From: an uncultured Candidatus Saccharibacteria bacterium
GTDB taxonomy: Bacteria; Patescibacteriota; Dojkabacteria; SC72
Assembly (NCBI GenBank): GCA_964585985.1
Contig: CAZPFV010000001.1
Location: 29,199 to 83,461, forward strand
DNA: 54,263 nucleotides
Direction of reading: 5' to 3'
Below are positions 24,174 through 54,263 of this stretch, in pieces (positions within the stretch are counted from its first letter, which is position 1; each line of letters starts with the position of its first letter). Below the pieces are notes generated by a model that was given only the letters and a program-made list of their open reading frames with translations, had not been told where the DNA came from and did not search any database. Made by a program: the position numbers and the translations under genes.

Positions 24174-24250
24174 GGGCGATTAGCTCAGCTGGCTAGAGCA
24201 TCACATTGACATTGTGGAGGTCACAGGTTCGAGTCCCGTATCGCCCACCA
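24174..24250 (+). tRNA. tRNA-Val (anticodon GAC) with genomically encoded CCA
   Basis: Hand-folded cloverleaf: acceptor GGGCGAT/ATCGCCC, D arm GCTC-AGCTGGCTA-GAGC, anticodon arm TCACA-TTGACAT-TGTGG, T arm ACAGG-TTCGAGT-CCCGT, discriminator A, then CCA. Confidence 0.9.
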
Positions 24251-35300: not shown

Positions 35301-38299
35301 CCACTACCGATCCTATTTTTGTGATTGGGATAGGATCAGATCCCTCAAACAGAGCTAATGCTATGACAGTACTAAAAAATGGTAATGTGGGGATAGGGGC
35401 TACTAATCCTCAAGCTATGTTTACAGTTGGTGCTACATCTCAGTTTAGGGTAGATAGTAATGGAAATTTAACAAGAATAAATAATGTACCATATTCATGG
35501 CCTAGTAGTAACACTTCTGGAGTACTTGCAAATAACGGAAGTGGAACATTAACATGGTCCTCATTAGCAAGTTTAGGAGTAGTAACAGGAAGTGGTACAG
35601 GTGGTGGAACGGCAGGTCAGGTGACATGGTGGAATGGTACTTCTATGATAACAGGGAGTAATACTCTTTGGTGGAATGATTCGAGTGGTCGATTAGGAAT
35701 AGGTACTACTAACCCACAGGCATCTTTAGATATTGCAGGGGCAACTTCTACTATATCAAATGCTAGTGGGAATATAACGATTACTCCTGCAAGTAATTTA
35801 ATTGTAAGTCAGGGAAATGTAGGGATAGGTGTCTCTTCACCGACTAATAAATTACAGTTAGCTGCAGCTACAGCAACAACTGGGGGTATTGGATTTGGCA
35901 CAGATGTCATACTGTATCGTTCAGCTGCGAATATATTATCTCTTGGAACAGGTGATACTCTTAATTTAGTATCTGGAGCTCTTAGTATAGCTAGTACAAA
36001 TGTTATTACTTCTGGAAGACTAGTATTAGCAAATAATGGTACAGCTGCTGCTCCTTCTTTCTCATTTGCAAGTGATCCTGATAACGGAATGTATCGTGCA
36101 ACTACAGATGCCTTAGCCTTCTCAACAGCAGGAACAGAGAGAATGAGGATATTAGCAAATGGGAATGTGGGGATTGGTGTTTCTTCACCGACTAATAAAT
36201 TACAGTTAGCTGCAGCTACAACAACAACTGGGGGTATTGGATTTGGCACAGATGTAATACTGTATCGTTCAGCTGCGAATATATTATCTCTTGGAACAGG
36301 GGACACTCTTAATTTAGTATCCGGAGCTCTTAGTATAGCTAGTACAAATGTTATTACTTCCGGAAGACTAGTATTAGGAAATAATGGTACAGCTGCTGCC
36401 CCTTCTTTCTCATTCGCAAGTGATCCTGATAACGGAATGTATCGTGCAACTACAGATGCCTTAGCCTTCTCAACAGCCGCAACAGAGAGAATGAGGATAT
36501 TAGCTAATGGGAATATAAAGATGGGGGAGAATTTGGCTTTAGGAGGTGTACAGCCGACTACAAATGTTGCGCTTAGAGTAGGAGGGAACTCTGCTGTAAT
36601 CGCATTAATAGGCTCAAATAATCCTGCTCCTGCTTCAGGGGCAAATGAGATCTATTCACAAGGGATCGAAGTAGGAACTGGAGATGGAGCTTCAAAGACA
36701 GTCAATAATCTTGCAATAAAGAGTTGGTATGGAATCGGTTTTTGGAATACAGTTGCCGCTGGTGGTAGAACAGATGCTGCAACGATTTGGTTTGATGTGA
36801 GAACTGGCTCTGCATATGCTATGGGAAATTGGAATGCAAATCAGGGTGACTTGGCAGAGGTAATGACTAAGGATGCAAATGAAATTCTTCTCCCAGGTGA
36901 TATTGTTCAGATATCATCTCAACAAAGTAAAAATATTACTATTGCAGATGAATCATATTCTTCAAAAATTATAGGTGTAATTTCAACTGCTCCTGGATTT
37001 GCGATGTCTTCTGACAATGGGGATCCAACGAAAGGCATATTATCAGACGAAGACAATCCAGAGAAGGCATTTGTTGGATTAATAGGCAAAATCCCTGTAA
37101 AAGTTGTTTTAACAAACGGAAATATCAATCAAGGGGCTCCTGTTACAGCCTCTTCTTTACCAGGTTTTGGAATAAGAGCAACGAAAGAGGGAACTATTAT
37201 TGGAAAGGCTTTAGAGTCAACAGAAGAGTGGAATACACAGACTTGCTCTTCTGTGAGTAGTATTAATGTGATTGAATGGCCTGCAGATGATGGCTCTAAC
37301 CCAACTAAACCCTGCTTTAAGTTACCTGATGGTACTATTGTTGGAAAAATAATGGTCTTTGTTAATGTAAGTTGGTATAACCCCTCAGTAACATATACTA
37401 GTACAATAACAAATGATTCCTCTGATGAAAAACTTAAAAATATTACAGGAGAATATACAAGGGGACTAACAGAACTCTTAATGCTAAACCCTATCCTTTA
37501 CTCTTGGAATGAACTCTCCGGAATGGAAATGGAAAATACATACGCTGGCTTTAGTGCACAAAATGTACAACAAGCCATACCAGAAGCAGTAGGACTAGAT
37601 CAAAGAGGATACCTCTCTCTAAATGACAGACCTATACTAGCAGCAACAGTTAATGCAATAAAGGAACAACAAGAAATGATATCAACCCTTAATTCAAGTA
37701 TATCCACACTCTCTGGAACTACTCTTAATTCAACCTCCTCTATAGGGGAGAATATCCGCTTTAATGTAGAGAGTAAAACATTGCAATTTACCAATGACGG
37801 AGAGGTATGGTATGAGTTTGCAGAGAAACAATCAATGATGCTACTAACAAGTAGAGTAGAAAATCTTGAAACAAAAATAGCTAATATCGATACTACAAAC
37901 AGTATTAATACAGAAAACATACTTAAAGTGAAATTAAATAATGAGGGTAATATAGAATTACTAGGAGGAAATATATTAATGGAAGGAAATGGAACATTAA
38001 GCATAAAGAAACTAAAAATGGAAGAGGAATACAGTATAGGGAGTGCTAAATTAACTTCCAATCAATTAAGTATAACTATTAATACAAAAGGTGTTACAAA
38101 AGACTCCAAAGTATTTGTAAATCCAACCTCTGACACATACAACAAGGTGCTATATGTCACTGATATTAAAGAAGGTGAGTCATTCCGTGTAAATATTAAT
38201 GAGGCCATAGACAAAGATATTACCTTCGACTGGTTCATCATTGATAGTAAAAAATCTACAGAGGAAGTAATAGAAATAATTGAAGATGTAAAACCTTAG
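32351..38299 (+). CDS. 1982-aa membrane-anchored fibre/adhesin-like protein with tail-fibre-type modules and an S74-like intramolecular chaperone segment
   Basis: N-terminal TM IFLITLVFSFWGTYFL. Also present: LSFQGRLTN..LGITVG..IPRQKIVSSAYALNADTLDG, recurrent GNVGIG(T/V)xxP motifs, STAMGxxTxASGxx repeats, a 116-aa tandem duplication, and SSDEKLKNI..GFSAQNVQQAIPEAV..VNAIKEQQEMISTL. Confidence 0.85.
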   Translation: MPKIRVENKKKISFKPLHYSIFLITLVFSFWGTYFLNDFNWSKLLEGDVIRDDILGVTAPNMLSFQGRLTNRSDTPITTPTNVTFKIYNAPAGGTELWTGSCTITPDQDGIFDTLLGGTCGSSIPTSIFSTYVDTYLGITVGTDSEMIPRQKIVSSAYALNADTLDGFDSSQTPGMNNVVVLDPTGNLTFGTTSPVISSSGNLILSPSGNVGINISNPASLLHVNEGNVLITGADKKLIVEQSRGSDTNFTSLWVGTTLALFQYPDDIKFGIQAASGQNDSGGSGYSLMSFGSTRNTMFGDMLASQSDPGHRVTIKGSTSSNGNGALSVLNSSDNSLLFVRNDGNVGIGTSTPSAALDVVGDIKASGTIRNVTVHGTVGTAAATAAKVVNIPNYTLTTGDLLSITFTLGNSVSAATLNVNSTGPNNIRLGNTNVTTTNMTLAAGSTVLMYFDGTYFQIMGSQRVSDSNTYDRTYWNNAITAGTAIYDYKLIMQAPDGKWYPLTLEEGTSTTKTVSTQPFTINSPILYYATTTNVAANGTFSNVYSEIPMANLRYTANSSSWTNQKPIYLKGTINSSGNFVLDNTTYDSFITQTLPTSADGFVYILLGQMYSTTAMRLFQYHPIYEYKAGRVQPYGAGSTTFAGLTDTPNSYFGNGGYLVRVNAGATGLEFVESSTFIDTNDYVDSVSFNSTNGVLTLGRTGILPDLTTNLDGRYLQSFTEADTLQTVTDRGATTTIASTFSTSIRTPLLIGNNSLGIRAGANSTTAIQLQNASGTSILNVDTTNSRVGIGTTSPVTKLHIADDGGILAQGIYESGWDGGSLGQGSRLMWIPSKSAFRAGYVFGTRWDTANIGDFSVAMGHSTTASGQASTAMGNQTSASGDSSTAMGLVTTASGNYSTAMGEETFAGGESSVAMGLAANTSGYASIAMGNQTSASGYSSTAMGYESTASGDASTAMGRNTTAQAYASTVIGRYNVISGNTTTWTTTDPIFVIGIGSDPSNRANAMTVLKNGNVGIGATNPQAMFTVGATSQFRVDSNGNLTRINNVPYSWPSSNTSGVLANNGSGTLTWSSLASLGVVTGSGTGGGTAGQVTWWNGTSMITGSNTLWWNDSSGRLGIGTTNPQASLDIAGATSTISNASGNITITPASNLIVSQGNVGIGVSSPTNKLQLAAATATTGGIGFGTDVILYRSAANILSLGTGDTLNLVSGALSIASTNVITSGRLVLANNGTAAAPSFSFASDPDNGMYRATTDALAFSTAGTERMRILANGNVGIGVSSPTNKLQLAAATTTTGGIGFGTDVILYRSAANILSLGTGDTLNLVSGALSIASTNVITSGRLVLGNNGTAAAPSFSFASDPDNGMYRATTDALAFSTAATERMRILANGNIKMGENLALGGVQPTTNVALRVGGNSAVIALIGSNNPAPASGANEIYSQGIEVGTGDGASKTVNNLAIKSWYGIGFWNTVAAGGRTDAATIWFDVRTGSAYAMGNWNANQGDLAEVMTKDANEILLPGDIVQISSQQSKNITIADESYSSKIIGVISTAPGFAMSSDNGDPTKGILSDEDNPEKAFVGLIGKIPVKVVLTNGNINQGAPVTASSLPGFGIRATKEGTIIGKALESTEEWNTQTCSSVSSINVIEWPADDGSNPTKPCFKLPDGTIVGKIMVFVNVSWYNPSVTYTSTITNDSSDEKLKNITGEYTRGLTELLMLNPILYSWNELSGMEMENTYAGFSAQNVQQAIPEAVGLDQRGYLSLNDRPILAATVNAIKEQQEMISTLNSSISTLSGTTLNSTSSIGENIRFNVESKTLQFTNDGEVWYEFAEKQSMMLLTSRVENLETKIANIDTTNSINTENILKVKLNNEGNIELLGGNILMEGNGTLSIKKLKMEEEYSIGSAKLTSNQLSITINTKGVTKDSKVFVNPTSDTYNKVLYVTDIKEGESFRVNINEAIDKDITFDWFIIDSKKSTEEVIEIIEDVKP
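34913..35272 (+). repeat. about 8.5 tandem 42-nt (14-aa) repeats S(T/V/I)AMGxxTxASGxx, YadA-head/Hep_Hag-like
   Basis: SVAMGHSTTASGQA / STAMGNQTSASGDS / STAMGLVTTASGNY / STAMGEETFAGGES / SVAMGLAANTSGYA / SIAMGNQTSASGYS / STAMGYESTASGDA / STAMGRNTTAQAYA / STVIGRYN. Confidence 0.8.
35816..36511 (+). repeat. two tandem 348-nt (116-aa) copies, roughly 95% identical at DNA level, inside the fibre gene
   Basis: Copy 1 is 35816-36163 and copy 2 is 36164-36511 (NVGIGVSSPTNKLQLAAAT..ERMRILANG). I count about 15-17 mismatches by eye. Confidence 0.9.
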
Positions 38300-40260: not shown

Positions 40261-40665
40261 ATGACACAACAAAAAATATTAACAAATGGTGGAGGACAAC
40301 AGCTGTTAGATAGAAGTAAGGTAGATAATATCTTAAACATTGTTACACATATATTCAAAGAATTTCTTAACTGGTGGTACATTAAGATGAGTATCTGGCA
40401 TTTAAGAATGCTAGGGAGAATCTCTCTTGTACTAGATGACAACCTCTCCATATCTCTTCTCTTAAAGAATTTCTTCCTTCCTTGGCATAGGGATTTCTCT
40501 ATGATTGGATATGTATTTGGGATATTAATAAAAATACTGTACCTACCAATCGCAATATTTATATACCTACTGTTTACACTTCTTTACACCCTCCTAATTA
40601 TAACTTGGCTTGTATTACCCCCTGCAACCCTCCTATATATTTTAATATCTTTCTTTGGAATATAA
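40261..40665 (+). CDS. hypothetical membrane protein (134 aa), translationally coupled to the Clp ATPase gene
   Basis: C-terminal hydrophobic helices (IGYVFGILIKILYLPIAIFIYLLFTLLYTLLIITWLVL). Stop TAA 40663-40665 shares one base with ATG 40665-40667. Confidence 0.55.
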   Translation: MTQQKILTNGGGQQLLDRSKVDNILNIVTHIFKEFLNWWYIKMSIWHLRMLGRISLVLDDNLSISLLLKNFFLPWHRDFSMIGYVFGILIKILYLPIAIFIYLLFTLLYTLLIITWLVLPPATLLYILISFFGI

Positions 40666-43382
40666 TGGCAATAGATTACGGATGGCAAAATAGAACAGTA
40701 TTAGGTCACCACGAAAAAGACAGTAATAGAGTGGAATTAATTGAAAAAGAACTCCCCATACTTACTAGAGAATCCGATGCTCTTTTTTTGGTTTCTAGAG
40801 ATCAATTCTTTACAGTATCTACACTTCAAATATCAAATGTCTTAGCTAACTATCTTAAATACAAAAAAACAAATAACAAACTTAGATTGATATCTAACAT
40901 TGCACTAGTTCCGGGGCTTTTCATAGCATTAGGATATCTTCTTCGACAGTTAAATTTGCTAGAAAATTTTACTTTTCTTAACAGCTTTCTCTCCAGCAAT
41001 ATTGCAAACATACTCTTTGGAATATCAATCTTTAATGTCTTCTTTCTTTGGTATGACTACTTCAAAGATAAAAGTCATCCAGTGCGACTCCCTAAAGCTG
41101 AGAAAATCTCTCTAAATGACTTAGAGGAGATACGAAATAGTGGATTTAAGTTTGGGAGATATGCACATCTTGAAGCGATTACATTTGTAGATGAAGATAC
41201 ATTAGATATACTTTGTAATAATACAAAAAATTTTGAAATTGAGATTTCAAATGTATTTACAGATTTAATTGTACGACCTGAAATACAAGAGATATTTAAA
41301 AGGGCAAACATCTCTATAACGGAAGATATTTTTAAACAGAATGATGTTACTAAAGAGACCTTACCCAAATACTCCTACACCGCTATAAGGAGCTTAATAA
41401 TATATTCTCTAAATGAAGCACTTCTAACCTCATCAACTGAGATACAACCTAAACATCTACTTCTCGCTCTCTTTAATGTATTTCCTGTATTAAGACAGGT
41501 ATTACTTACTCAAAATTCATCAGTAGATGTACTTAGAGAGGTTGTAAGATATCAATCTTACGAGTATCAAAAGAGAAAGAAAGGGAATACATTTAATCTC
41601 ACTGTTCCATACTTTAAAAAGGGCGGAGTAGCTAAAAACTGGATTTATGGATATACATATATACTTAGTCATTTTACGAAAAATTTAAACGAAGAGATAA
41701 TATCTGATAGGGATATTTACGGCATCGGCCATGATGATGAAATAGAGGCATTAATATCAGTGCTAGGTAAGGTGTCTAACCGAAATGCCCTCTTCATCGG
41801 AGAGCCTGGAGTTGGGAAGTCCAGTATTGTTCTTGGGGTAGCACAAAAAATTAATAGTGGAGATGTACCTATTCAGATTAAAGATAAAAGGATCCTTAAA
41901 TTTGATATTAATGGTCTCATTGCACAATCTTCAAAAGAAAGGAATCTTGAATTACTAATATCTAAATCTATGAAAGAGCTAGAGAATGCACAAGACGTAA
42001 TTCTGTATATTGATGAAATGCAGGAATTAATACCCTCTAAGGCAAGTGAGAGTGGACACTCCCTTGCTGGTATCTTACTACCATATATATTAAACAGTAA
42101 ATTCCCAATACTGGGTACTGTCAATTACTCTGATTACAAAAAATATTTCTACAGTATGGAGTCACTAAGACAATCCTTTACAAATATTGAAATAAAGGAG
42201 ATCTCTGCTGCAGATGCTCTTAAAATTTTGGAAACCAAAGTGTCGCAGTTAGAGCGAAATTTTGGAATATATCTTACATTCCCTGCACTAATCAGTGCAG
42301 TTGAGTTAGCCCAAAGATACAACAGAGAGAGGAAACTACCAAGTAGTGCTGTACAGCTAATTGAAGAAGCATGCTCCTGGTCTCAAACTAGTGGGGTAAG
42401 GATTGTAACCGAAGAACATGTATCTAAGGTTCTCTCTAACCAAAAAGGTATCCCTATTGGTAATGTAAACGCACAGGAGAGTACCCGACTAATGAAGCTA
42501 GAGGAGAATATGAAAGTAAAGATTGTAGGGCAAGAGGAGCCCATTAACGCCCTTATAGAGGCTCTCAGAAGAGCCCATGTTGATATTAGAAACCCTAACA
42601 AGCCAATCGGTTCATTTCTCTTTTTGGGCCCCACTGGAGTCGGTAAAACACATATATCTAAAGTACTTGCAGAGGAGTATTTTGGCAGTGCCTCAAATAT
42701 GGTAAGAGTTGATATGTCTGAATACAAGGATATTAATAGTGTAGAGAAATTCTTAGGAGGAAGCTCAGATGGAAGTATTTTGAGCAAATCGTCAATATCT
42801 TTGATAGACAAGATAAAGAGTAACCCATACTCCGTTGTACTCTTTGATGAAATGGAGAAGGCACATCCCCAAATACTAGACCTCTTCTTACAAATCTTTG
42901 ATGAAGGCAGACTCACTAGTACTCTGGGTGAGACGGTTGATTTTACCCACAGCATAATAATATGTACAAGTAATATTGGTAGTAATATCTTGTTAGAGTC
43001 TCTTTCTGATTCTCAAACAACCTGGGAAGAGGCCAAGGACAGGGTACTAATTGAATTACGACAAGCTATAAAGCCGGAATTGCTAAATAGGTATGATAAG
43101 GTGATAGTATTCCATCCTCACGATGTAAAGAATCTATCTCAAATCTCTGAATTACTGCTAGGAGAGCTAGCTACTAGACTAAATGAAAAAAGTATTAAGC
43201 TTAAATGGAGTAGTGTAATACCTCAATTAATAGCAAGTAAAGCAAATGAACCTGGTTTAGGTGCAAGACCAATTAAAAGATATATACAGGACCATATAGA
43301 GGGTAATATCGCAAAAGAGATGGTGGAGGGAAAAATTATCGCTGGACAAGAGATAGAGGTCAAAGAGAGTTGGATAGTATAA
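40665..43382 (+). CDS. two-ring Hsp100/Clp AAA+ ATPase with an N-terminal double-TM membrane anchor
   Basis: TM helices ISNIALVPGLFIALGYLL and IANILFGISIFNVFFLW. Clp_N-like HLLLALFNVFPVLRQVL. Walker A GEPGVGKSS and GPTGVGKTH. Walker B ILYIDEMQ and VVLFDEMEKA. I prefer ATG 40665 over the track start 40605. Confidence 0.85.
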   Translation: MAIDYGWQNRTVLGHHEKDSNRVELIEKELPILTRESDALFLVSRDQFFTVSTLQISNVLANYLKYKKTNNKLRLISNIALVPGLFIALGYLLRQLNLLENFTFLNSFLSSNIANILFGISIFNVFFLWYDYFKDKSHPVRLPKAEKISLNDLEEIRNSGFKFGRYAHLEAITFVDEDTLDILCNNTKNFEIEISNVFTDLIVRPEIQEIFKRANISITEDIFKQNDVTKETLPKYSYTAIRSLIIYSLNEALLTSSTEIQPKHLLLALFNVFPVLRQVLLTQNSSVDVLREVVRYQSYEYQKRKKGNTFNLTVPYFKKGGVAKNWIYGYTYILSHFTKNLNEEIISDRDIYGIGHDDEIEALISVLGKVSNRNALFIGEPGVGKSSIVLGVAQKINSGDVPIQIKDKRILKFDINGLIAQSSKERNLELLISKSMKELENAQDVILYIDEMQELIPSKASESGHSLAGILLPYILNSKFPILGTVNYSDYKKYFYSMESLRQSFTNIEIKEISAADALKILETKVSQLERNFGIYLTFPALISAVELAQRYNRERKLPSSAVQLIEEACSWSQTSGVRIVTEEHVSKVLSNQKGIPIGNVNAQESTRLMKLEENMKVKIVGQEEPINALIEALRRAHVDIRNPNKPIGSFLFLGPTGVGKTHISKVLAEEYFGSASNMVRVDMSEYKDINSVEKFLGGSSDGSILSKSSISLIDKIKSNPYSVVLFDEMEKAHPQILDLFLQIFDEGRLTSTLGETVDFTHSIIICTSNIGSNILLESLSDSQTTWEEAKDRVLIELRQAIKPELLNRYDKVIVFHPHDVKNLSQISELLLGELATRLNEKSIKLKWSSVIPQLIASKANEPGLGARPIKRYIQDHIEGNIAKEMVEGKIIAGQEIEVKESWIV

Positions 43383-45489: not shown

Positions 45490-46176
45490 CTAGAGACGAT
45501 TCTCAGTTTTTACTTTAAATACCTCTACGATATCTTCATACTCTGTGTATGGCTGAAAAGGTGAGTAAATGTCAATTTTCTCTCCACTGCCATCTGCAAT
45601 ATAGTACCCACTTACAGTTAATTCAATTTCCCAAACATCGGAATTATCTTCTCGTTTCGAGCTACTAAGCTCTACATTCTCTAGTCTTAACATATAGGGG
45701 GATACATTTTGAGCCTCATCTAAGAAAGATATAATGTTGTTGTACTCCCCTTTATACGCAATAGGTCCAGAAACAGACTCTAGTGCGTCAGAAGATGCCA
45801 GTTTTGATATTTCCAAACTTAATGATTTAGCAAGATTATCAAGGTAGTATACTAAGTCAGAGACTAACAAGATATTTGGGACTACTTTTTTAGCAGTAAG
45901 CACATCATCTCTAAGCGCATCTTCATCTATCCTCTTTAACTGCTCATCTAATTTTTCTAACTGTTTAATCTTTCCCTCAACAACTTTCATCTCTCCACGA
46001 TATTCAAAAGCTGATCTTACCATTGGTATAAAAACAGCAAATGACAGAATAGCAAATGCTGCCGCAGATGCGAAAGGGATAATCAAATCACCAAGCGTCA
46101 ATTTTGTTTTCTTACTCTTGGCTATATCCCTTAGCTCCTCACTCTTTTTTCTATCTGTTCTGTTTAATAATGCCAT
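45490..46176 (-). CDS. pilO: type IV pilus assembly protein PilO-like
   Basis: Third gene after pilM-pilN. One TM helix, a coiled-coil (EGKIKQLEKLDEQLKRIDE), then an alpha/beta domain (..YKGEYNNIISFLDEAQN..LRLENVEL..). Confidence 0.6.
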   Translation of the reverse strand: MALLNRTDRKKSEELRDIAKSKKTKLTLGDLIIPFASAAAFAILSFAVFIPMVRSAFEYRGEMKVVEGKIKQLEKLDEQLKRIDEDALRDDVLTAKKVVPNILLVSDLVYYLDNLAKSLSLEISKLASSDALESVSGPIAYKGEYNNIISFLDEAQNVSPYMLRLENVELSSSKREDNSDVWEIELTVSGYYIADGSGEKIDIYSPFQPYTEYEDIVEVFKVKTENRL

Positions 46177-46178
46177 TA

Positions 46179-46871
46179 TTAATTATTCTTAAAATTGTCT
46201 AAAATAAGGACTCCACTAAAAGTAAATTTCGCGCCTTCATCCGATTTATTAAAAGATTCTAATTTAATACTTTTTATATTTTCATTTACACCAAACAGAT
46301 ACCATAGCCGAGAAAGCTGTTCTAAATCAGGTGCATTTCCTGTTAACTCAAATCCTAAATTTTCAGATATCTCTATAGTAGAGAAATTGATACCTTGTAC
46401 CTTCCTACCTATTTCTCTAAAGTACTCAATTATTCTTTTATGTGAGAAACTGTCCTCTTCGACTTTTTGATAAAGACGAATCCTTGTTAAGATAATATTA
46501 TTCAAAGATATTGTCTCTGATCTATCATTAATACTTTTCTCTATTTTTCTCAAAGAGTTCTGTTTGCTAGCTAGTTGTGTTTTGGAAATAATGTTAAATC
46601 CTACAATAGCGATTGTGATGGCTACAAATATGATAATCGTGAGAATAGACCCAATATTTAAAGTATTCTTTTTTTTGATTGTACTCTTCTGCTCCTTAGT
46701 TAGTGATGGTATAAGGTTAACACCCTCTGATGCTTGCACTTTTTGAGGCTCAGCAAGGGTTGCGCCCATTGTTGTAGGAGTTGGGGGAGGTGCAATAGGC
46801 CCAGGTGCAGCAGCTGGTTGCTGTTGTGGAGGGATACTATTTACTTGTTGTGGTTGTTGTTGATTATTCAT
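46179..46871 (-). CDS. pilN: type IV pilus assembly protein PilN-like with Q/P-rich N-terminal extension
   Basis: The GVNLIPS motif is followed by TM helix ILTIIIFVAITIAIVGFNII. 8-nt overlap with pilM. The N-terminus MNNQQQPQQVNSIPPQQQPAAAPGPIAPPPTP is low complexity. Confidence 0.7.
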   Translation of the reverse strand: MNNQQQPQQVNSIPPQQQPAAAPGPIAPPPTPTTMGATLAEPQKVQASEGVNLIPSLTKEQKSTIKKKNTLNIGSILTIIIFVAITIAIVGFNIISKTQLASKQNSLRKIEKSINDRSETISLNNIILTRIRLYQKVEEDSFSHKRIIEYFREIGRKVQGINFSTIEISENLGFELTGNAPDLEQLSRLWYLFGVNENIKSIKLESFNKSDEGAKFTFSGVLILDNFKNN

Positions 46872-47892
46872 CTTTTAATGCTAAACCTATTGCTACAGAG
46901 TACGACGCCCCTGTTTTAGCTAGTATACTTTTAAATCTATTATCCACTGCTATATTATTCCATGGATTTGCAATTTGTGCACTAACCCCTAGTGATTTAG
47001 ATACATACTCCGTTAAGCCCGGAAGTAGTGCACCGTCACCATTTAGTAGATATTCCATAGGAGGAGCACTCAAAGTTCTATTTTTATAAAATTCTACTCC
47101 TCGTCTTACTTCAATGATAATAGAGTCAATAATGGGTAGTAGGGCACCGTAAATTTTCCCCTCTACTACTGATGAGACTAGTCCGTAGCTCCTTTTAAAC
47201 TGTTCTGCTCTGTTATAATCAAAATTAAATTTGTTAACTACTGCCTGTGTTAGCGCATCAGAGCCTATCGGTATACTTTGCGAGAATACCAATGCTCCAT
47301 TTGTCATAATACTCATATCTGTACTGTTTGCACCAAAGTCTAACATAACTGCATCTTTTTTCTTCATTGATCTAAACATGGCTCTTCCCATTGCAACAGA
47401 CTCTGTTTCAATCGCAATTAAATCTAGACTTGCGAAATTAGCGACATTCATATAGATCTCTATTATCTTTTTAGGTGCTGCAACAAGTAATACCCTTGGA
47501 GCATTTCTCTCCTGATTAAACCCTATAACAACATAGCTCATTTGCACATCATCAATTGGTACTGGTATATACTGTTTTGCTTCATAATATACTGCCTGTT
47601 TGAGTTCCTCTTGTTTCACTCCAGGAAATTCTAAAAATCTCGTAAATACTGAGAACTCGGGTAGAGCCATCACAACATTTACATTCTTCATTTTAGTGTT
47701 GGCGTAGAGAGTCTTGAGTGCATCCCCCAATTTTTTTTGATCCTGTCTTTCCTCACTGTTGATAACTCCTTTTGGAGTTAATTGCATACCCAAATTTGTC
47801 AATTGTGGGGTATTAAGAATGTTCTTTAGTTCGACAGCTTTCACTGTATGTGTTCCGAAATCTATGCCTACATGATCTGGCAATTTCGCCAT
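46864..47892 (-). CDS. pilM: type IV pilus assembly ATPase-fold protein PilM
   Basis: Actin-like fold motifs VGIDFGTHTVKAVEL, MLDFGANSTDMSI and LNGDGALLPGL. Confidence 0.88.
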   Translation of the reverse strand: MAKLPDHVGIDFGTHTVKAVELKNILNTPQLTNLGMQLTPKGVINSEERQDQKKLGDALKTLYANTKMKNVNVVMALPEFSVFTRFLEFPGVKQEELKQAVYYEAKQYIPVPIDDVQMSYVVIGFNQERNAPRVLLVAAPKKIIEIYMNVANFASLDLIAIETESVAMGRAMFRSMKKKDAVMLDFGANSTDMSIMTNGALVFSQSIPIGSDALTQAVVNKFNFDYNRAEQFKRSYGLVSSVVEGKIYGALLPIIDSIIIEVRRGVEFYKNRTLSAPPMEYLLNGDGALLPGLTEYVSKSLGVSAQIANPWNNIAVDNRFKSILAKTGASYSVAIGLALKDE

Positions 47893-47965
47893 ACTTACTG
47901 GACAGTTAATTTATGACTACTAATATGATAGCAGAAATGATTCAATCTTTGAAATTAGTTAAATA

Positions 47966-50900
47966 CTATGGCTTGATTCCAGCCTCAGCAGAGTGCACTA
48001 CAGTAGTTTTAGCAAAAAATTGCTCTACTAGATACCCATACTTAGGATGTAAATCAATAGCTACAACAGGATATACTAATCTCTCTTCTAGTCTAAGATA
48101 CCTATTTACTACAATGCTTGTACTACTTCCTTTAGATATTAACCCTCCATTAATATATACACCATCTACAATATTTGGAGGTGGGACATTATCAGCTCCA
48201 ACTGTAATTACCCCATCTGCAACTATGAAAGCATTTACTTTCTCATATTCGAAAACATTTGGTCTTTCATGGGTTCCTGCATTTATGACTACACTGCCAC
48301 TTACAACAAAAATACAGCCATTTTGATTACTTAAGGTCGTTGCATTTTGGCTATGTATTGGAGGACTAATTGATAGGTTTCCATCAACAAATATTACAGC
48401 TTTCTTGTCACAACGCAAATTACTATTAACAGTAAGATTTCCTAAGCGATGGAAAGCACAGTAAGTTCTACTGCATGTATTTAAATTTGCTAAAGAGGAG
48501 GAGGTCAAGGTTATCTCCTGTAAAGCATCCCCTAAATTGGTTATCTGATATTCATACTTTTCTTTTAGATCTTTGTACAATGATTCTGTTTGAGAAATTA
48601 CTTGATTTCCATGTCCCGCTAGAGAGTATGAATTTGTCGCTGGAGCATTTACCAAAGCATTACTTCTGTTTGCAAGCATTTCACTCGTTAATCCTCCATT
48701 TTTGCGGAGCATACCATCACTTGCTGATAAAGGATAGGGAGGAAGGGTGCCTTGCCATAATGAGTCGTTTGCTAATGTTAATTCTGCAAAGGAAGGGTTT
48801 CCACTAGAGTAGAGTAAGCCTCCACCAGTTAAGAATCTGTCTGAGAGATTTTCACCCACAGAGAAAGTGGTCATATTACCTGCATAATCAAATACATGTA
48901 AATATATGTTGATGGCTCCTTGAGTATTTTGTCCTACATCTATACTTACAGTTCCACTATTTGTTGAGGAGTTCAGGTGTGCTGGCTGAACTTGAAATGA
49001 CCAATCCCCATTTAGCTTTCCTACTAAATCACCGCTACCACTACTTGGCTCTGGTTGAAAAATACCGTCTCCATTCCTTAATGAAATCGTATGAGAGGGA
49101 GTACCAACTAGATCAATATCTATCTCCTTCCTATTTATATCCGTAGCAGAGGAGTATACATTTCCTACAATTGCATAAAGATTTCTATCATCTCCCGCTT
49201 CCCATTCTACAATTATTTTATTTTCCTGAATTTCTGTGTTTACATTAATTGTTGGACTGACTGAGTCTATTACCCAATTCTTTCCTGAGTCTGTCCAATT
49301 TCTAGCATATGTTTGGTTTTGTGACGGCTTATATCTTAAAGTATTAGCATCTGGCCAGTAGTAAGACAGGTCTGTATAGCCATGTCTTAAGAAGTTGGAC
49401 TGCCAATATCCTCCGTAATTTATTCCTGGATAGTTGTCGTACGGGGTAAAACTAAATTTGTCTAAACCAAGAAGGAAAATATCGTAATTTCCGTCTTGCA
49501 CCTGTCCACCGTAACGAGTTCCAGCACTACTTGAGAATTGCAAACTAAATTCCATATTTAACTCATTATTATTACCTGCTGATACAGAAGGTGGGGCTAG
49601 TACTGACACTCGTACCATTTGTTGGTTATTAGGACTCGCGATATCAAATACTTTGTAGAACGCTGTTGTTGACAAGGTCGCTACTGTCCAATATGAAGTT
49701 GCCCCAGCGTAAGAGGGTACATACGGGATCCAATCAGTTCCGTTTCTTCTTAGCATGAATCCCCAACTATCACGTGCAGAGGATTGAGGAGTAGCACTCG
49801 TTGATAGATTTACTGGAGTGTTGGGCACTCCAGTGTAGTGACTCTCTCTAAACCATACAAACATGCCTTCAATATCGTTTGCGCCATCATTGTCGGTATA
49901 GGTGGCTTTCATCTTTATCGGGAGAAGGGGATCATTTAAGCTTCCAATTCTAGAGTTAGTACTACTACTCCCTGTGTGAGTATGGCTTACAAAATCATAA
50001 CCGTTAGCGGTTGGAGCTGGGTCGTTCACAACTATACTTAATTTGGTTGTAGGCTGGGGTGAAGATGGTTCATAGCAGTCATCTTCACTTTCTAGGGGTT
50101 TCACACCACAATCATTTGTACACTCTCTAAAATCATTTAGAATTAAATTAGCATTCCCTGTATTTGTTAATGGAGATGGACATGATTTCAGGCAAGAACT
50201 ACAGTAGCAACTTCTGTATGTTAAATCACAAAGGGTTGTCCTGTTTGGAGTAGAAGAGCTTCCTCTTCTACAACTGGCTGTACTTGAGTCTGCGACTTTT
50301 CCTTGGTAAACACCTGATTGGTACTGGGCAGATTCGAAATATCCTAGGGTTGAGCATAGTGGAGGAGTACAGGCATTGCAGTAACAATTTATAGAGGTAC
50401 TATTTCTCTTTGGGTTACAATTATTCGTTGAGACACCATTTGTCCTATCACAATACTCTGTTTGAGTAGAATGGAAATCAGAGGTTTTAGGGTACAGTGG
50501 GTCTGTAGGGATACTATTTGTTGTTGATGTTCCACTAGGACAAACTGGAGTAGGAGGGGTACAGTTAATACAACGACACCAACAGTCTTCACTGGAGGTC
50601 CCACAACAGGAATTAGTATGTGTTCTAGATCCACAAGCATATGAGTCTGTTGAATTGGTGTCTCCATTAGAACAACTTCCCCAACCAGCAGAGCAAGTAG
50701 AATTACAAGAACCACCACTACAACCGCAGGAACAAGAGGTATACGAATATGTCCCACCCCAACAACATCCTGAGCCTTGATACATCTTACCGGGACCACA
50801 CAACGCGGATGATGCATAACATGTACCATTCTCCAAGCAATCACTGCTACACGCACTTCTACAACCAGTAGGCCAACATCCACCTGGTGTAAGTTCGCAA

Positions 50901-51028
50901 ACCTTTGTAGAACCACTACACCAACATGCCGATAATGGAGTAGGCGTTGAGAAATAAGCAAAGCTAAAAGCTATTAAAAACGTAATTAGAATAATGAGTG
51001 TTCTTGGATTAATTATTTTTCTGTCCAA
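47966..51028 (-). CDS. 1020-aa secreted protein: signal peptide, ~290-aa Cys-rich module (about 40 Cys), Ig-like/beta-rich middle, beta-helix-like C-terminus; paralogue of the gene at 52378
   Basis: Signal/anchor LIILITFLIAFSFAYF. Motifs CWCRCINCTPPTPVCPSG, NCYCNACTPPLCS, SCYCSSCLKSCPSP, and HVFDYAGN. The C-terminus reads AVIFVDGNLSI..GCIFVVSGSVVINAG..GVYINGGLIS. Confidence 0.85.
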   Translation of the reverse strand: MDRKIINPRTLIILITFLIAFSFAYFSTPTPLSACWCSGSTKVCELTPGGCWPTGCRSACSSDCLENGTCYASSALCGPGKMYQGSGCCWGGTYSYTSCSCGCSGGSCNSTCSAGWGSCSNGDTNSTDSYACGSRTHTNSCCGTSSEDCWCRCINCTPPTPVCPSGTSTTNSIPTDPLYPKTSDFHSTQTEYCDRTNGVSTNNCNPKRNSTSINCYCNACTPPLCSTLGYFESAQYQSGVYQGKVADSSTASCRRGSSSTPNRTTLCDLTYRSCYCSSCLKSCPSPLTNTGNANLILNDFRECTNDCGVKPLESEDDCYEPSSPQPTTKLSIVVNDPAPTANGYDFVSHTHTGSSSTNSRIGSLNDPLLPIKMKATYTDNDGANDIEGMFVWFRESHYTGVPNTPVNLSTSATPQSSARDSWGFMLRRNGTDWIPYVPSYAGATSYWTVATLSTTAFYKVFDIASPNNQQMVRVSVLAPPSVSAGNNNELNMEFSLQFSSSAGTRYGGQVQDGNYDIFLLGLDKFSFTPYDNYPGINYGGYWQSNFLRHGYTDLSYYWPDANTLRYKPSQNQTYARNWTDSGKNWVIDSVSPTINVNTEIQENKIIVEWEAGDDRNLYAIVGNVYSSATDINRKEIDIDLVGTPSHTISLRNGDGIFQPEPSSGSGDLVGKLNGDWSFQVQPAHLNSSTNSGTVSIDVGQNTQGAINIYLHVFDYAGNMTTFSVGENLSDRFLTGGGLLYSSGNPSFAELTLANDSLWQGTLPPYPLSASDGMLRKNGGLTSEMLANRSNALVNAPATNSYSLAGHGNQVISQTESLYKDLKEKYEYQITNLGDALQEITLTSSSLANLNTCSRTYCAFHRLGNLTVNSNLRCDKKAVIFVDGNLSISPPIHSQNATTLSNQNGCIFVVSGSVVINAGTHERPNVFEYEKVNAFIVADGVITVGADNVPPPNIVDGVYINGGLISKGSSTSIVVNRYLRLEERLVYPVVAIDLHPKYGYLVEQFFAKTTVVHSAEAGIKP

Positions 51029-52320
51029 TACAATAAATATATCAAATTATCTCTCAATTGATAGCTCATTAATTTCAATTCTGAGTCTTCCAAACTTACA
51101 GAACTAACAATAAAAGCCCCTGATTCATTAGTAACTGTAGTATGTCTGATGAGCTCCTTTACGGTATCCTCCAAAGACTCAATTGGAGAATTAAACAGTT
51201 GACTTGCAAGAAAACAATTATTTAATTCTACGAAATTTCTTGTAATCGCAGTATCTATCTCATTCTTTATCACTTCCTCTATCTTCGGTTTTAGAAATTT
51301 ATATATCTCTTCATTCTCTGTTGTATATGCAATAGTACAGAGACCATTTAAAAGTAAATCGGATTCATTATATGTCTCAATCATCATATTCTGATGAGAT
51401 TTAGAGTATCCTTTATCCATACCGATTTCATCAAAAAGTTTTGAATTATTCGAGTATTGAACAATGTCACGATACTCTATAGAAAAGGACTCACTCTCTA
51501 GGCTTAGATTTGTAAAATCTTTATTTAATTTAATTTCAGCAAAATCCATAAATTGTAGTGAGTCGGCATCAAAGGCATCGTAACCCTCAGTGAAGCTTTC
51601 ATCTAACCCTATCTCTACTAATTTTAATAGATAAGCATTCGGTTTATACTCAACTCTTAAATCTTCCTTTGAATAGTTATTATTAATATATTCTATCTCC
51701 CTATTTACATACTCATACAACTCTTTGTCATCATATTTCTTAGCAACTTGGTAAGTAAGGTATGTTAACTGAAGGTACTCTTCTGTAAGATCTTTAGAAT
51801 CATTACATCCCCAAATAATTTTATCCCTTGTAACTCCCCCCGTAATACAACCCACATTCTCTTGGATGGAGTATTGACTAAGCATATGCTTTACTCCATT
51901 AAAGTACTCCGAATATACAGGTGAGGAGATTGTCTGATTGTTGGAAATAATTTGCATCTCATCAATAGTATATCCCTTACCCGGGAAGAGATTATATTTT
52001 TTGAATGTGATATCAATTTTATATATCCCACTACTGTTAAATTCATTCTTCACTATTTTTGTACAAGGAACTTTAAGAACATCTTTAATAGCAAGATTAT
52101 TATATTTGATTTCACAAGTATCTTTATCAAATTTTTCAATATACAGTTCAATTACAAGCTGATTTTCTTCAATATGTTGAGTTACAGTTTCAAATCTTTG
52201 CTTATATATGTCCTTCTCATCTTTTAGTGTATTTAAAAAATAGAGATATACCCCTGACGCTATTAGAAGTGCGAGGAGAAATATAAGGATAATCTTTTTA
52301 ATTGTATTATTTTTAGTCAT
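51013..52320 (-). CDS. hypothetical N-terminally anchored extracytoplasmic protein (435 aa)
   Basis: TM helix IILIFLLALLIASGVYLYF. Mostly helical, D/E/N-rich ectodomain. It overlaps the downstream gene by 16 nt. Confidence 0.7.
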   Translation of the reverse strand: MTKNNTIKKIILIFLLALLIASGVYLYFLNTLKDEKDIYKQRFETVTQHIEENQLVIELYIEKFDKDTCEIKYNNLAIKDVLKVPCTKIVKNEFNSSGIYKIDITFKKYNLFPGKGYTIDEMQIISNNQTISSPVYSEYFNGVKHMLSQYSIQENVGCITGGVTRDKIIWGCNDSKDLTEEYLQLTYLTYQVAKKYDDKELYEYVNREIEYINNNYSKEDLRVEYKPNAYLLKLVEIGLDESFTEGYDAFDADSLQFMDFAEIKLNKDFTNLSLESESFSIEYRDIVQYSNNSKLFDEIGMDKGYSKSHQNMMIETYNESDLLLNGLCTIAYTTENEEIYKFLKPKIEEVIKNEIDTAITRNFVELNNCFLASQLFNSPIESLEDTVKELIRHTTVTNESGAFIVSSVSLEDSELKLMSYQLRDNLIYLLYWTEK

Positions 52321-52377
52321 AATCGATTAGTAGTTATATACACATAATATTAATTGAACCGTAATTTTATATCACTT

Positions 52378-54263
52378 TTAATAGGGAGTAATACCCACCT
52401 CTGTCTCTTGCATATTTACTAGGATACCAAATAGGGATCTAGCTAATACTCCATACTTAGAATGATGATTTACAACTACTGCGGGATACCTTAATCTATC
52501 CGCAACCCTTAATGTCCTTTCCATTCTAATTGCATCCGTGGCCTCCTTAATAGTATGAATACCACCACTAATGTAAAGGCCATCTCCTTCAGCATCTTTT
52601 TTAATAGATATCTGTCCATCAGATAATAGATACATATTTATTTCATCATACTGCAATTGCGAAGTACTCATTTTATTCCCAGCCTTAATTGTTACATTAC
52701 CAGATGCTATAAATATGCAGGCATCCTTCTGTGCATTCGCATTAGTAATTCTCCCATCAATAATTAAATCACCATCAACGAAAAATACCCCCTGTCTATC
52801 ACACTTAAATGATGAGCTTACAGTTAGAGTACCTACAGTATCACCAACAGCTATTTGATTAGGTTCCACCCCTTCGCCCAGATTAGATAGATTTCCTGAT
52901 AAGGAGGTAACACTGCCCAAATTTTTTAAAGTATGTGCTATTGTATCTTTCCTTCTGTTAAATGAATTTTTAAGCGAATTGTAATATCCATTAGGCGGAT
53001 TAGAAGATAAAAACGGTTGTATCATGTATGACTCTGTTGCTCCACTTCTAGAGGGTGCAACAGGGGTAGCTCCACTTTTACCAATTAGCTCGGTTGATAT
53101 ATCTGCATGAGCTCGTGCTATCTCTTTAAGTAAATTCTTTGAATCGAGCCAATCAGTCAAATCCCCTCGATTATCGACATTAATCTTTATTTCATCAGAA
53201 TACAGTAAACCTCCTTGAGTAATTAACCAATCTCTTAAATCCAGTTTAAGATCATTATGGCTTCCGATATTTCCCCCTTTATCAAAGGCTGTGAGATAGA
53301 AGTGTAGACTACCTTGACCGACATTATTCAAAGTAAGAAGGGCTGAGCCATTACCATTACCTCCATGAATTTTTAATAGATATTCATTTACACTTGCTTC
53401 TAGTGATCCAACGAGATCATCATGATTCCCCTCTTCTTTAAGCTTTAGACCATTGTTGAGATCCATAGAACTAGCTCCTCCATTATTAATATTTGATAAA
53501 GAAATTGGATCAATAGCTAACCCCTTGCTTTTGTATATATTAAGTACCAAATCACTGAATTCATCTGGTAGACCACCGCCCGAATGATTAAACTTCCAAT
53601 CTAACTCTATTCCAGATGAGGAGCTGCTACTAGGTTTTACTGTCAGAACAATTGTTGGGAGATAGAAATTTAAATTCCATACGACTGATGTTTTTTGCCA
53701 TTGGTCATAATATCGTATCCTTTCGTTAGTTATCCATCTGTTTTTAATTGCATTCTTAACGACATTTTCCCTATCCTCATAATTATCATATGGTGTAAAA
53801 CCAAATGTATCATTTGCCATTAACCATATTTTATATTCTCCTTCTTCAGCAACATTAGCAAGAAAATTATTGTCATTAGCTTTGAAACTTAAACTGAATT
53901 TTAACTTTACTGTTTTACCATTATTAGAAGGGGTTATAGAGTAGAGTAGTACTTTTGCAATAATACCTGTTGGTCCAGGTATGGAAATTACAGTCTTACC
54001 ATCAACTGTTTCAGAGTATTCATTTAGGGCTTGTTTCCAAAGATCGGATGAGCCTTCTCCTGTTCCTGCTATAGCTGGGATGTAGGGTGTCCATATACCA
54101 GCCTTGTTATGTAGCATAAAACCGAATTCTCCCTTACTTCTACTGCCATATTTTTGAGGTGTAGAGTCATTGTTTAGATCAATACTCATGGGAGTAATAG
54201 GCTTACTCCCACTCTTATTAAACCATACATACACCGCCTCTATTGGTAAATCCTGATCTATAA
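52378..54263 (-). CDS. large secreted protein, paralogue of 47966-51028 (5' end outside the window)
   Basis: The frame stays open beyond the track's GTG (54234) to the window edge (..IDQDLPIEAVYVWF, compare DIEGMFVWF in the paralogue). Shared blocks include FGFTPYDNY, FDKGGN, QGGLLYS, VFFVDGDLII and RYPAVVV. Confidence 0.8.
   Translation of the reverse strand, partial: IDQDLPIEAVYVWFNKSGSKPITPMSIDLNNDSTPQKYGSRSKGEFGFMLHNKAGIWTPYIPAIAGTGEGSSDLWKQALNEYSETVDGKTVISIPGPTGIIAKVLLYSITPSNNGKTVKLKFSLSFKANDNNFLANVAEEGEYKIWLMANDTFGFTPYDNYEDRENVVKNAIKNRWITNERIRYYDQWQKTSVVWNLNFYLPTIVLTVKPSSSSSSGIELDWKFNHSGGGLPDEFSDLVLNIYKSKGLAIDPISLSNINNGGASSMDLNNGLKLKEEGNHDDLVGSLEASVNEYLLKIHGGNGNGSALLTLNNVGQGSLHFYLTAFDKGGNIGSHNDLKLDLRDWLITQGGLLYSDEIKINVDNRGDLTDWLDSKNLLKEIARAHADISTELIGKSGATPVAPSRSGATESYMIQPFLSSNPPNGYYNSLKNSFNRRKDTIAHTLKNLGSVTSLSGNLSNLGEGVEPNQIAVGDTVGTLTVSSSFKCDRQGVFFVDGDLIIDGRITNANAQKDACIFIASGNVTIKAGNKMSTSQLQYDEINMYLLSDGQISIKKDAEGDGLYISGGIHTIKEATDAIRMERTLRVADRLRYPAVVVNHHSKYGVLARSLFGILVNMQETEVGITPY

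Follow-up and report, generated by a model that had tools for sequence, protein, structure and literature searches.

What is the function of two large, paralogous secreted proteins whose genes lie directly upstream of pilM-pilN-pilO in an uncultured, ultra-small member of the Dojkabacteria? The genes are found at the end of a 54,263-nucleotide (nt) stretch of contig CAZPFV010000001.1 (hereafter the window), a chromosome segment with a G+C content of about 0.34 which is rich in housekeeping genes. Bacteria in the CPR (candidate phyla radiation; also called Patescibacteria) are thought to live attached to other microbes, with type IV pili (T4P) as the best-supported attachment device, and host-recognising molecules are known, tentatively, only for one cultivated Saccharibacterium. 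An original prediction, made from the sequence alone, had taken the two proteins, together with an anchored protein of 435 amino acids (aa) encoded between them, for an uncharacterised accessory set of the pilus machinery with a tip, adhesin or secreted-substrate role. This assignment was supported here by linkage of the gene family to pilus genes in 26 of 26 Dojkabacteria loci and in nine of nine distant ones. The best explanation of the large proteins, to which a probability of about 0.45 is given, is that they would be non-pilin adhesins associated with the pilus (at its tip), acting as non-homologous functional analogues of PilY1/PilC.

Two large proteins of an unnamed family

Six co-directional open reading frames (ORFs) on the minus strand make up the last 8.8 kb of the window (45490–54263). 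In the direction of transcription these are the distal paralogue of the large secreted protein (52378..54263), represented by its C-terminal 627 aa only, with the ORF open to the window edge and without an upstream stop; the 435-aa protein (51013..52320), which is bitopic with one N-terminal transmembrane (TM) helix and the remainder extracellular; the pilM-proximal large secreted protein (47966..51028), 1020 aa in length with a TTG start; pilM (46864..47892, 342 aa); a pilN-like gene (46179..46871, 230 aa); and a pilO-like gene (45490..46176, 228 aa). The distal paralogue is separated from the 435-aa gene by 57 nt, the 435-aa and 1020-aa genes overlap by 16 nt, and a gap of 73 nt precedes pilM, in exact agreement with the arrangement first described. 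Further along, pilM shares 8 nt with pilN, and 2 nt separate pilN from pilO. A terminator scan identified no intergenic terminator-like site inside the cluster, and promoter-like sites were found in it at chance frequency by a promoter scan. A cluster without an internal terminator is compatible with a single transcript, yet is not evidence of one.

The two large proteins were aligned by BLASTP with an E-value of 2e-54 and 27% identity over about 635 aa (aa 386–1020 of the 1020-aa protein against aa 7–626 of the distal paralogue), and all of the motif blocks which had first suggested paralogy fall inside this alignment. Judged by sequence, they are paralogues, the similarity being far beyond chance. 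The full length of the distal paralogue, about 883 aa, was taken from a close relative, locus L003 (83–86% identical), in which the corresponding protein (L003:5998-8649, 883 aa) is 91.4% identical and has a Sec-type leader. The earlier description of two giant secreted proteins agrees with the Sec-type leaders of the 1020-aa protein and of the L003 orthologue of the distal paralogue, but with lengths of 1020 and about 883 aa the proteins are better called large than giant, and only one of them is complete in the window.

Neither protein gave a match in Pfam (at E<=1) or NCBIfam, and a profile of the 1020-aa protein had as its best match among PDB sequences the fibronectin type III (FN3) domain of Tie2 with an E-value of 1, which shows only that an FN3/immunoglobulin (Ig)-like stretch may occur. 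The lack of a named sequence family, as originally reported, was thus upheld in Pfam, NCBIfam and PDB. Sixty close homologues of the 1020-aa protein were found (32–83% identity), all of them unannotated, and every one with a named source belongs to Candidatus Dojkabacteria (WS6). A profile search of 1.84 billion representative proteins identified 622 family members at E<1e-3 (219 at E<1e-30), many of which have only the C-terminal ~440 residues in common, their N-termini being variable in both sequence and length; a word-indexed homologue search with the C-terminal alignment returned nine fragments. On these homologies the large proteins are placed in an unnamed family restricted to the CPR/Patescibacteria. 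The NCBI labels of distant members are inconsistent, with one 90% cluster named both Nomurabacteria and Dojkabacteria. The Pfam domains accreted by 40 distant members are mostly binding modules, namely Flg_new (InlB B-repeat), VWA (in two of the 40), CBM60, Laminin_G_3 (ConA-like), Pentaxin, DUF2341 and Gly_rich_2, with a few glycan-active modules (GH130 and Polysacc_lyase).

The 1020-aa protein begins with a Sec-type signal peptide (aa 1–34; 50927..51028, this and the following regions being on the minus strand) with a hydrophobic core at aa 10–28 and inferred cleavage after L-S-A. Signal peptides were judged by eye and by hydropathy; relatives of the protein show classic A-x-A sites. The N-terminus of the distal paralogue lies outside the window, and the leader of its L003 orthologue is of the Sec type. 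As had been noted from the sequence, a prepilin signal is absent: the large proteins have neither a G/FTLIE motif nor a match to N_methyl (PF07963), and the latter is also absent from the 435-aa protein.

Behind the signal peptide lies a variable region rich in Cys and Ser/Thr (aa 35–320; 50069..50926), which contains 40 Cys (13%) and was modelled by AlphaFold2 (AF2) with low confidence. It is followed by a tandem Ig-like beta-sandwich region (aa 321–740; 48809..50068) with a predicted local distance difference test score (pLDDT) of mostly 80–95, inside which an invariant D-x-F-x-F-T-P-x-D-N-Y motif is found at aa 523–533. The remainder (aa 741–1020; 47969..48808) is the conserved C-terminal part of the family-defining ~440-aa module. 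Here aa 741–815 form a disordered loop, and aa 816–1020 are predicted to form a long helix packed on a beta-solenoid of ~6 turns, in which a Cys pair (C873, C905) is conserved, followed by a short helix and a terminal strand of low confidence. The mean pLDDT of the full-length AF2 model is 74.7, and the model of the C-terminal domain has a pLDDT of 83.5 with a predicted template modelling score (pTM) of 0.84. Residues which are invariant throughout the family are C, C, G, Y-D, D-G, G, R, P, (K)Y and the final E-x-G-[FWI]-K-[PASV]-[YFL]-COOH; the 1020-aa protein itself ends in E-A-G-I-K-P and the distal paralogue in E-V-G-I-T-P-Y. No LPXTG, SLH, lipobox or C-terminal TM segment was detected in the large proteins, the C-terminus having no hydrophobic segment. 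Given a Sec leader and no LPXTG or TM anchor, such a protein must be retained by protein-protein contact.

One family member, P0050 (L017:10461-15041, 1526 aa), has a ~200-aa non-family insertion in its C-terminal region, where only the last ~70 residues are family-like, and carries a Gly_rich_2 domain elsewhere. If this module still folds, the solenoid tolerates large insertions.

Comparison of the full model by Foldseek brought up nothing beyond tandem Ig-like stalks of a generic kind (integrin alpha legs, AgI/II C-domains, MSCRAMMs, Als and SiiE) with E-values of about 1e-5 to 1e-3, query-normalised template modelling (TM) scores of 0.08–0.15 and sequence identities of 7–11%. The best matches to aa 321–740, namely AgI/II C-domains, the MSCRAMMs ClfA/FnBPA/UafA and integrin alpha legs, share with it the generic fold only, and sortase-anchored adhesins differ from the window proteins in having an LPXTG signal and another C-terminal domain. 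The C-terminal domain alone had no significant neighbour in PDB (best E 0.16) or BFVD. Its nearest geometry was that of the DUF3494 ice-binding solenoids 5uyt and 5b5h (TM score 0.37–0.41, probability 0.80–0.84, E 0.3–1, not significant), which likewise have a helix packed against a short right-handed solenoid; however, the family has no Pfam DUF3494 match, and its Cys pair and terminal motif are specific to it. No Secretin domain match was obtained, and no secretin was present among the fold-search matches. Homology of the C-terminal domain to PilY1, secretins, lyases, tailspikes and bactofilin was rejected on the lack of a significant PDB or BFVD neighbour. A match to an unrelated enzyme family, which would have spoken for a different role, was found by none of Pfam, NCBIfam, PDB profile comparison and Foldseek.

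Linkage to pilus genes and membrane partner genes

The identification of the downstream genes as pilM-pilN-pilO is supported by evidence of differing kinds and strength. The 342-aa protein is PilM with certainty from its sequence matches to Pfam PilM_2 (PF11104, 3e-51) and TIGR01175 (2.6e-58), both above curated cut-offs. The 228-aa protein gave no Pfam match as a single sequence; a profile of ten orthologues matched Myxococcus xanthus PilO (3jc8) with an E-value of 2.5e-4, and the orthologue in L036 has a weak match to Pfam PilO (PF04350), which supports a PilO-like protein. No family match (Pfam, NCBIfam) or PDB match was obtained for the 230-aa protein. It contains an E-G-V-N-L-I-P motif (aa 50–56) before its TM helix, in which N52 and L53 are invariant and P55 is >90% conserved among ten orthologues, and we take this N52-L53-x-P55 to correspond to the PilM-binding (I)NLLP-type motif of PilN known from work on Thermus PilM-PilN. 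Position, bitopic topology and the NLIP motif support its designation as PilN. The protein also has a long Gln/Pro-rich N-terminal extension (aa 1–45), the length of which varies among orthologues.

The contig of L003 runs past the point at which the window ends and shows the complete operon, in the order pilC, major pilin (MNRKYSG/FTLVEML...), pilD, four pilin-like genes, a single-domain response regulator, a 185-aa bitopic membrane protein, the 883-aa distal paralogue, the 435-aa protein, a 1021-aa protein, pilM, pilN and pilO. The minor pilin genes lie outside the window and are known from the loci of relatives. In L003 the four pilin-like proteins (307, 172, 236 and 302 aa) have class III leaders; the first and third have sub-threshold similarity to ComGD/GspH and ComGF/GspJ/PilV, and the fourth has a leader without Glu5 (G/QAIAI...), typical of K-type minor pilins. 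Class III leaders are displayed by the true pilins of the operon, unlike the large proteins. In L003, L005, L001, L034 and L036 the large genes come after four pilin-like genes, all in a single co-directional cluster. Since close relatives have an operon with an H/I/J/K-like minor-pilin set at this position, the window region is the 3' end (distal third) of a Candidatus Dojkabacteria T4P operon.

Synteny was surveyed in 25 loci from one-genome-per-species GTDB contigs and five metagenome loci; the GTDB survey was run with a closer alignment and is hence biased toward Dojkabacteria. The proximal large gene is directly upstream of pilM-pilN-pilO in all 26 Dojkabacteria loci which have downstream sequence (about 24 of them non-redundant), and pilMNO is followed there by a convergent KH-S16-RNase III-NusB block. 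A second paralogue is found upstream in most Dojkabacteria loci, with three copies in L015 and directly adjacent paralogues in L008, L011, L012 and L020. The consistent synteny with pilMNO implied by the original prediction was therefore found, and unlinked homologues were not found among the loci examined.

Nine distant members, which have only the C-terminal module in common (22–30% identity), were looked up, and every one was located in a T4P context. P0120, P0157 and P0190 (L032, L034 and L036) are encoded directly before pilM, the operons of the latter two being laid out like that of the window. The loci of P0146 (L033) and P0165 (L038) are clusters with pilin, pilC, minor pilins and two large-gene copies each, with pilB also in L033. 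The genes for P0188, P0171 and P0129 (L031, L035 and L037) stand directly before that for a K-type minor pilin (Y-x-G-Q-A-L-A-[IV]..., GspK/PilX-type, no Glu5), and in L035 partner, large protein and K-type pilin form a three-gene unit with no other pilus gene annotated in the locus. Pilus linkage is conserved to a degree which excludes coincidence, and the large proteins are very probably associated with the pilus system.

Two further observations were made at these loci. In L037 five genes (L037:12693-16558) stand between the large-protein/K-pilin pair and pilMNO, encoding Fic/RhuM, a response regulator, a methyltransferase and a BrnT/BrnA toxin-antitoxin pair, so that the operon can be split without loss of the former pair. 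In L033 and L038 two tandem pairs of partner and large protein are found next to a RuBisCO large-subunit gene with no adjacent pilMNO. Genes for DsbA/thioredoxin-like proteins and S8 peptidases are nearby in both loci, with VKOR in L038 only, and the disulfide-forming genes may serve to oxidise the Cys-rich large proteins.

The 435-aa protein had been described as anchored, and a single strong N-terminal hydrophobic helix (Kyte-Doolittle 2.65, aa 10–28) was indeed found. Upstream of nearly every family member, be it proximal or distal, close or distant, lies a gene which usually overlaps the large gene by 1–20 nt and encodes a protein of 180–570 aa with a single N-terminal TM helix. From this rule across the family, the large protein next to pilM has the 435-aa protein as its dedicated partner. 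Several sequence families make up the partners, namely a ~185 or ~555-aa type (before the distal paralogue), ~330–355-aa types and the 435-aa type. The partner of the distal paralogue occurs in a short (~185 aa) and a long (~555–570 aa) form (L001:5015-6679, also L013 and L027); both have in common an N-terminal W-[LF]-G-[YF]-S-F-F-S-M motif, and the extra ~370 aa of the long form gave no family match. The 435-aa protein has no Pfam or NCBIfam family, only sub-threshold noise being returned (phi29 scaffolding, E 0.009; BslB, E 0.0035). A search for its homologues yielded its own cluster only, and pairwise BLAST against its positional equivalents in L005 and L001 was negative. The partners evolve so quickly that a profile-profile comparison was needed to connect them: by hhalign, the 435-aa type was aligned with the ~330-aa partner family over aa 9–142 with a probability of 81% (E 1.2e-5).

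Possible functions of the large proteins

The genes of the locus differ in their rates of evolution. Between the window and L003, amino-acid identity is 98.8% for PilM, 95–98% for housekeeping proteins, 96.5% for PilO, 92.6% for PilN, 91.7% for the 435-aa partner and 91.4% for the distal paralogue. The value for the 1020-aa protein is 85.6% overall and 60–72% over the first 120 residues, making it the fastest-evolving gene of the locus, with the N-terminal region as its fastest-diverging part. A conserved C-terminus combined with a variable, module-swapping N-terminus is the pattern of a binding protein which is exposed and which docks by a conserved end.

In the type IVa pili (T4aP) of diderm bacteria, four minor pilins of the H/I/J/K types prime assembly and end up at the tip. 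They are capped there by PilC/PilY1, a large modular non-pilin tip effector (PMC10191384, PMC7541494). The large proteins resemble PilY1/PilC of Pseudomonas, Myxococcus and Neisseria in their size (about 1000 aa), in being Sec-exported and not prepilins, in their place in a pilus operon after four H/I/J/K-type minor pilins, in having a conserved C-terminal domain and a variable modular N-terminal part, and in the occurrence of paralogous copies (compare Neisseria PilC1/PilC2 and the several Myxococcus sets). As they are exported by Sec without an anchor, are encoded in the pilus operon in every case, stand beside a K-type minor pilin in three lineages, and are conserved at the C-terminus but variable at the N-terminus, it is proposed that they occupy the same functional slot, and PilY1 would be the best functional analogy. 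Also counted in favour of this reading were an operon logic like that of fimU-pilVWXY1, in which four pilin-like genes are followed by large Sec-secreted non-pilins, the fast evolution of the variable N-termini, the added binding modules, an Ig-like stalk like the stalks of adhesins and the absence of an enzyme-like match.

According to this proposal, the large proteins would be exported by Sec and would fill, as unanchored non-pilin adhesins, the role of PilY1/PilC in diderm T4aP. The C-terminal module, with its Ig-like sandwich, beta-solenoid and exposed terminal E-x-G-F-K-P-Y strand, would dock on the minor-pilin priming/tip complex, probably on the K-type subunit, and the variable disulfide-rich N-terminal part (with lectin, CBM, VWA and InlB-repeat modules in relatives) would project outward and bind the host or another surface. 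The upstream bitopic protein (435 aa here), presumed to be translationally coupled, may act as a membrane-tethered chaperone or hand-over factor, keeping the secreted protein at the machine up to the moment of loading. We infer the tip location, the docking, the adhesin role and the role of the partner from the arrangement and conservation described above.

Comparable proteins have been described in other bacteria. A non-pilin effector is not listed for monoderm T4aP, and Streptococcus sanguinis uses modular pilins (PMC10191384, PMC8179133); its minor pilins PilB and PilC display VWA/lectin modules on a monoderm T4P, following the same logic of grafted modules (PMC8179133). These are, however, true pilins with a class III leader and an N-terminal pilin helix which polymerise, whereas the window proteins have a Sec leader and no pilin domain. 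Closer in lineage are PilX1 and PilX2 of the Saccharibacterium Nanosynbacter lyticus TM7x (T4P-1, T4P-2), large proteins of CPR T4P loci without PilD-type signals and with accessory beta-rich domains; for both, a role as tip adhesin has been proposed, and efficient host binding depends on PilX2 (PMC11623550). Compared by description, a jelly-roll (L-type lectin-like) domain is present in PilX1 and an RCC1-type beta-propeller in PilX2, unlike the Ig-like sandwiches and beta-solenoid of the window family, and no membrane-partner gene is reported for them.

A number of points weigh against the PilY1-like reading. No homology or fold similarity to PilY1/PilC was found, with no PF05567 match, no propeller in the models and no PilY1 structure among the Foldseek PDB matches of the full model or the C-terminal domain. 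The homology to PilY1/PilC raised with the original prediction was not supported, the models having no beta-propeller. The family differs from PilY1/PilC in having an Ig-like sandwich and short beta-solenoid at the C-terminus and not a seven-bladed beta-propeller (PF05567), an extremely Cys-rich N-terminus, a dedicated overlapping upstream gene for a bitopic protein with each copy, and a host lineage without outer membrane or secretin. Two paralogues per locus, each with its own partner, are not a feature of PilY1 (though Neisseria has PilC1 and PilC2). Divergence among the partner proteins is so great that sequence comparison gives only weak support for a common origin, and the conserved polar residues of the solenoid (Y-D, D-G, R, K-Y) could belong to a catalytic site or a ligand site instead of a docking surface. 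Lacking PF05567 or a propeller as well as a class III leader, the large proteins are members of neither PilY1/PilC nor the pilins, and should not be annotated as either.

Finally, the Dojkabacteria genes abut pilMNO and are separated from the minor pilins by a response regulator, which fits a component of the machine equally well. The large proteins, held by their membrane partners, might form an extracytoplasmic collar or conduit above PilMNO and guide the fibre on its way through the wall or S-layer of a cell which has no outer membrane, PilQ or PilP. Such a part would be suited by a gene which in Dojkabacteria is invariably beside pilM, by the strong conservation of the C-terminal module and by the membrane-anchored, translationally coupled partner of each copy; moreover, CPR bacteria are without PilQ (PMC6744442), and the operon contains no gene for a secretin or a PilP-like protein. 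We nevertheless regard this as unlikely. The large genes diverge faster than all parts of the machine, their copy number ranges from 1 to 3, and their highly variable N-termini with added lectin, CBM and VWA modules typify exposed binding proteins. It is also with the K-type minor pilin and not with pilMNO that the gene is paired in L031, L035 and L037, no pilMNO is nearby in L033 and L038, and the Foldseek search gave no ring-forming or secretin-like fold.

Somewhat less likely again is that the proteins are free-standing surface adhesins or S-layer-like coat proteins, merely co-transcribed with pilus genes for joint expression of attachment functions and having no physical link to the pilus. 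The lack of an LPXTG, SLH, lipobox or C-terminal TM anchor speaks against this, although in its Ig-like stalk the protein is similar to Gram-positive surface adhesins and to an S-layer protein. The CPR in general have large, Cys-rich proteins outside the cell, for which a function in attachment has been proposed (PMC4736985), and the window encodes another large candidate surface protein (the 1982-aa ORF described below) outside the pilus operon; however, the family's genes stay in T4P neighbourhoods across deep divergence, for which co-regulation alone is no explanation, and the L035 unit of partner, large protein and K-pilin, which stands apart from any other pilus gene, is an argument that the link is physical.

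An improbable alternative is that the proteins are secreted cargo or effectors, with the pilus serving as a type II secretion piston or a tip-delivery device and the solenoid C-terminus binding or cleaving host cell-wall polysaccharide. Non-pilin effectors such as PulA and TcpF are known from the type II secretion system (T2SS) and type IVb pili (PMC10191384, Table 1), yet T2SS-type secretion is needed only across an outer membrane, which is missing in the CPR (PMC6744442), where Sec export already suffices. The beta-solenoid with its invariant Asp, Arg, Lys and Tyr, the sub-threshold resemblance to Cthe_2159 (E 0.035), the non-significant Foldseek matches, which include a family 3 pectate lyase and DUF3494, and the GH130, Polysacc_lyase or CBM60 modules of some relatives are in line with action on polysaccharide; set against these, no enzyme family or structure was matched significantly, the solenoid is short (about 6 turns), and it is the C-terminus, not the putative cargo part, which is conserved.

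That the proteins are subunits of a separate, self-polymerising strand-exchange fibre with the terminal E-x-G-F-K-P-Y strand as donor, as in chaperone-usher or CPR Pam pili, is very improbable: the conserved extreme C-terminal strand of low model confidence and the Ig-like domains recall the Pam pilins, which are Sec-exported Ig-like proteins assembled by donor-strand exchange (bioRxiv 10.64898/2026.03.03.709456), but these are two-domain proteins of 38–55 kDa encoded near ATP synthase genes and not in T4P operons, proteins of 90–160 kDa with hypervariable N-termini would make a poor repeating subunit, and no chaperone- or usher-like genes are nearby. Identity with Pam pilins was itself rejected, the size, architecture and gene context in that paper's description being different.

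The reading as PilY1-like tip adhesins can be given a bolder form, which is put forward with more doubt. The family would then be a CPR-specific, non-homologous replacement of PilY1 delivered as a two-gene cassette of membrane-tethered loader and disulfide-rich adhesin, the solenoid and terminal strand plugging into the K-type minor pilin at the tip, the hypervariable N-terminus and swapped-in lectin, CBM and VWA modules setting the choice of host, and the two paralogues providing two host or surface specificities per pilus system. We propose as new a candidate non-pilin pilus accessory adhesin of unrelated fold, together with a C-terminal domain that had no name before and a partner-gene rule that had gone unnoticed. 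For Dojkabacteria and related lineages, the family is a tangible candidate, encoded within the operon itself, for the part of the pilus that binds the host. Its C-terminal domain and the partner-gene rule could serve to annotate hundreds of "hypothetical proteins", and the fast-evolving N-termini could mark host range in metagenomes. If a PilY1-like role is true, non-pilin tip effectors are not confined to diderms and have arisen more than once from unrelated folds.

Other features of the window

The housekeeping genes of the window include those for ThrRS, PheRS-beta, HisRS, MutS, a PBP1A-type enzyme, ClpB, RNase III, NusB, S16 and Dus. A 1982-aa ORF (32351..38299, plus strand) has YadA_head repeats (E 1.2e-18) and a Peptidase_S74 intramolecular-chaperone domain (E 9e-7), and the stretch has a raised G+C content of 0.37–0.405 compared with about 0.33. 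It is a second candidate for a giant surface fibre or adhesin, unrelated to the pilus-linked family.

The ClpB-like ORF (40605..43382, plus strand) is listed as 925 aa from a TTG start, and its orthologues in five relatives are 904–905 aa in length; from these shorter orthologues, the true start is probably about 20 codons further downstream. A 134-aa ORF at 40261..40665 is kept in all relatives and would adjoin, not overlap, ClpB with the later start. The sole RNA gene detected in the 54-kb window is a tRNA-Val(GAC) at 24174..24250 on the plus strand.

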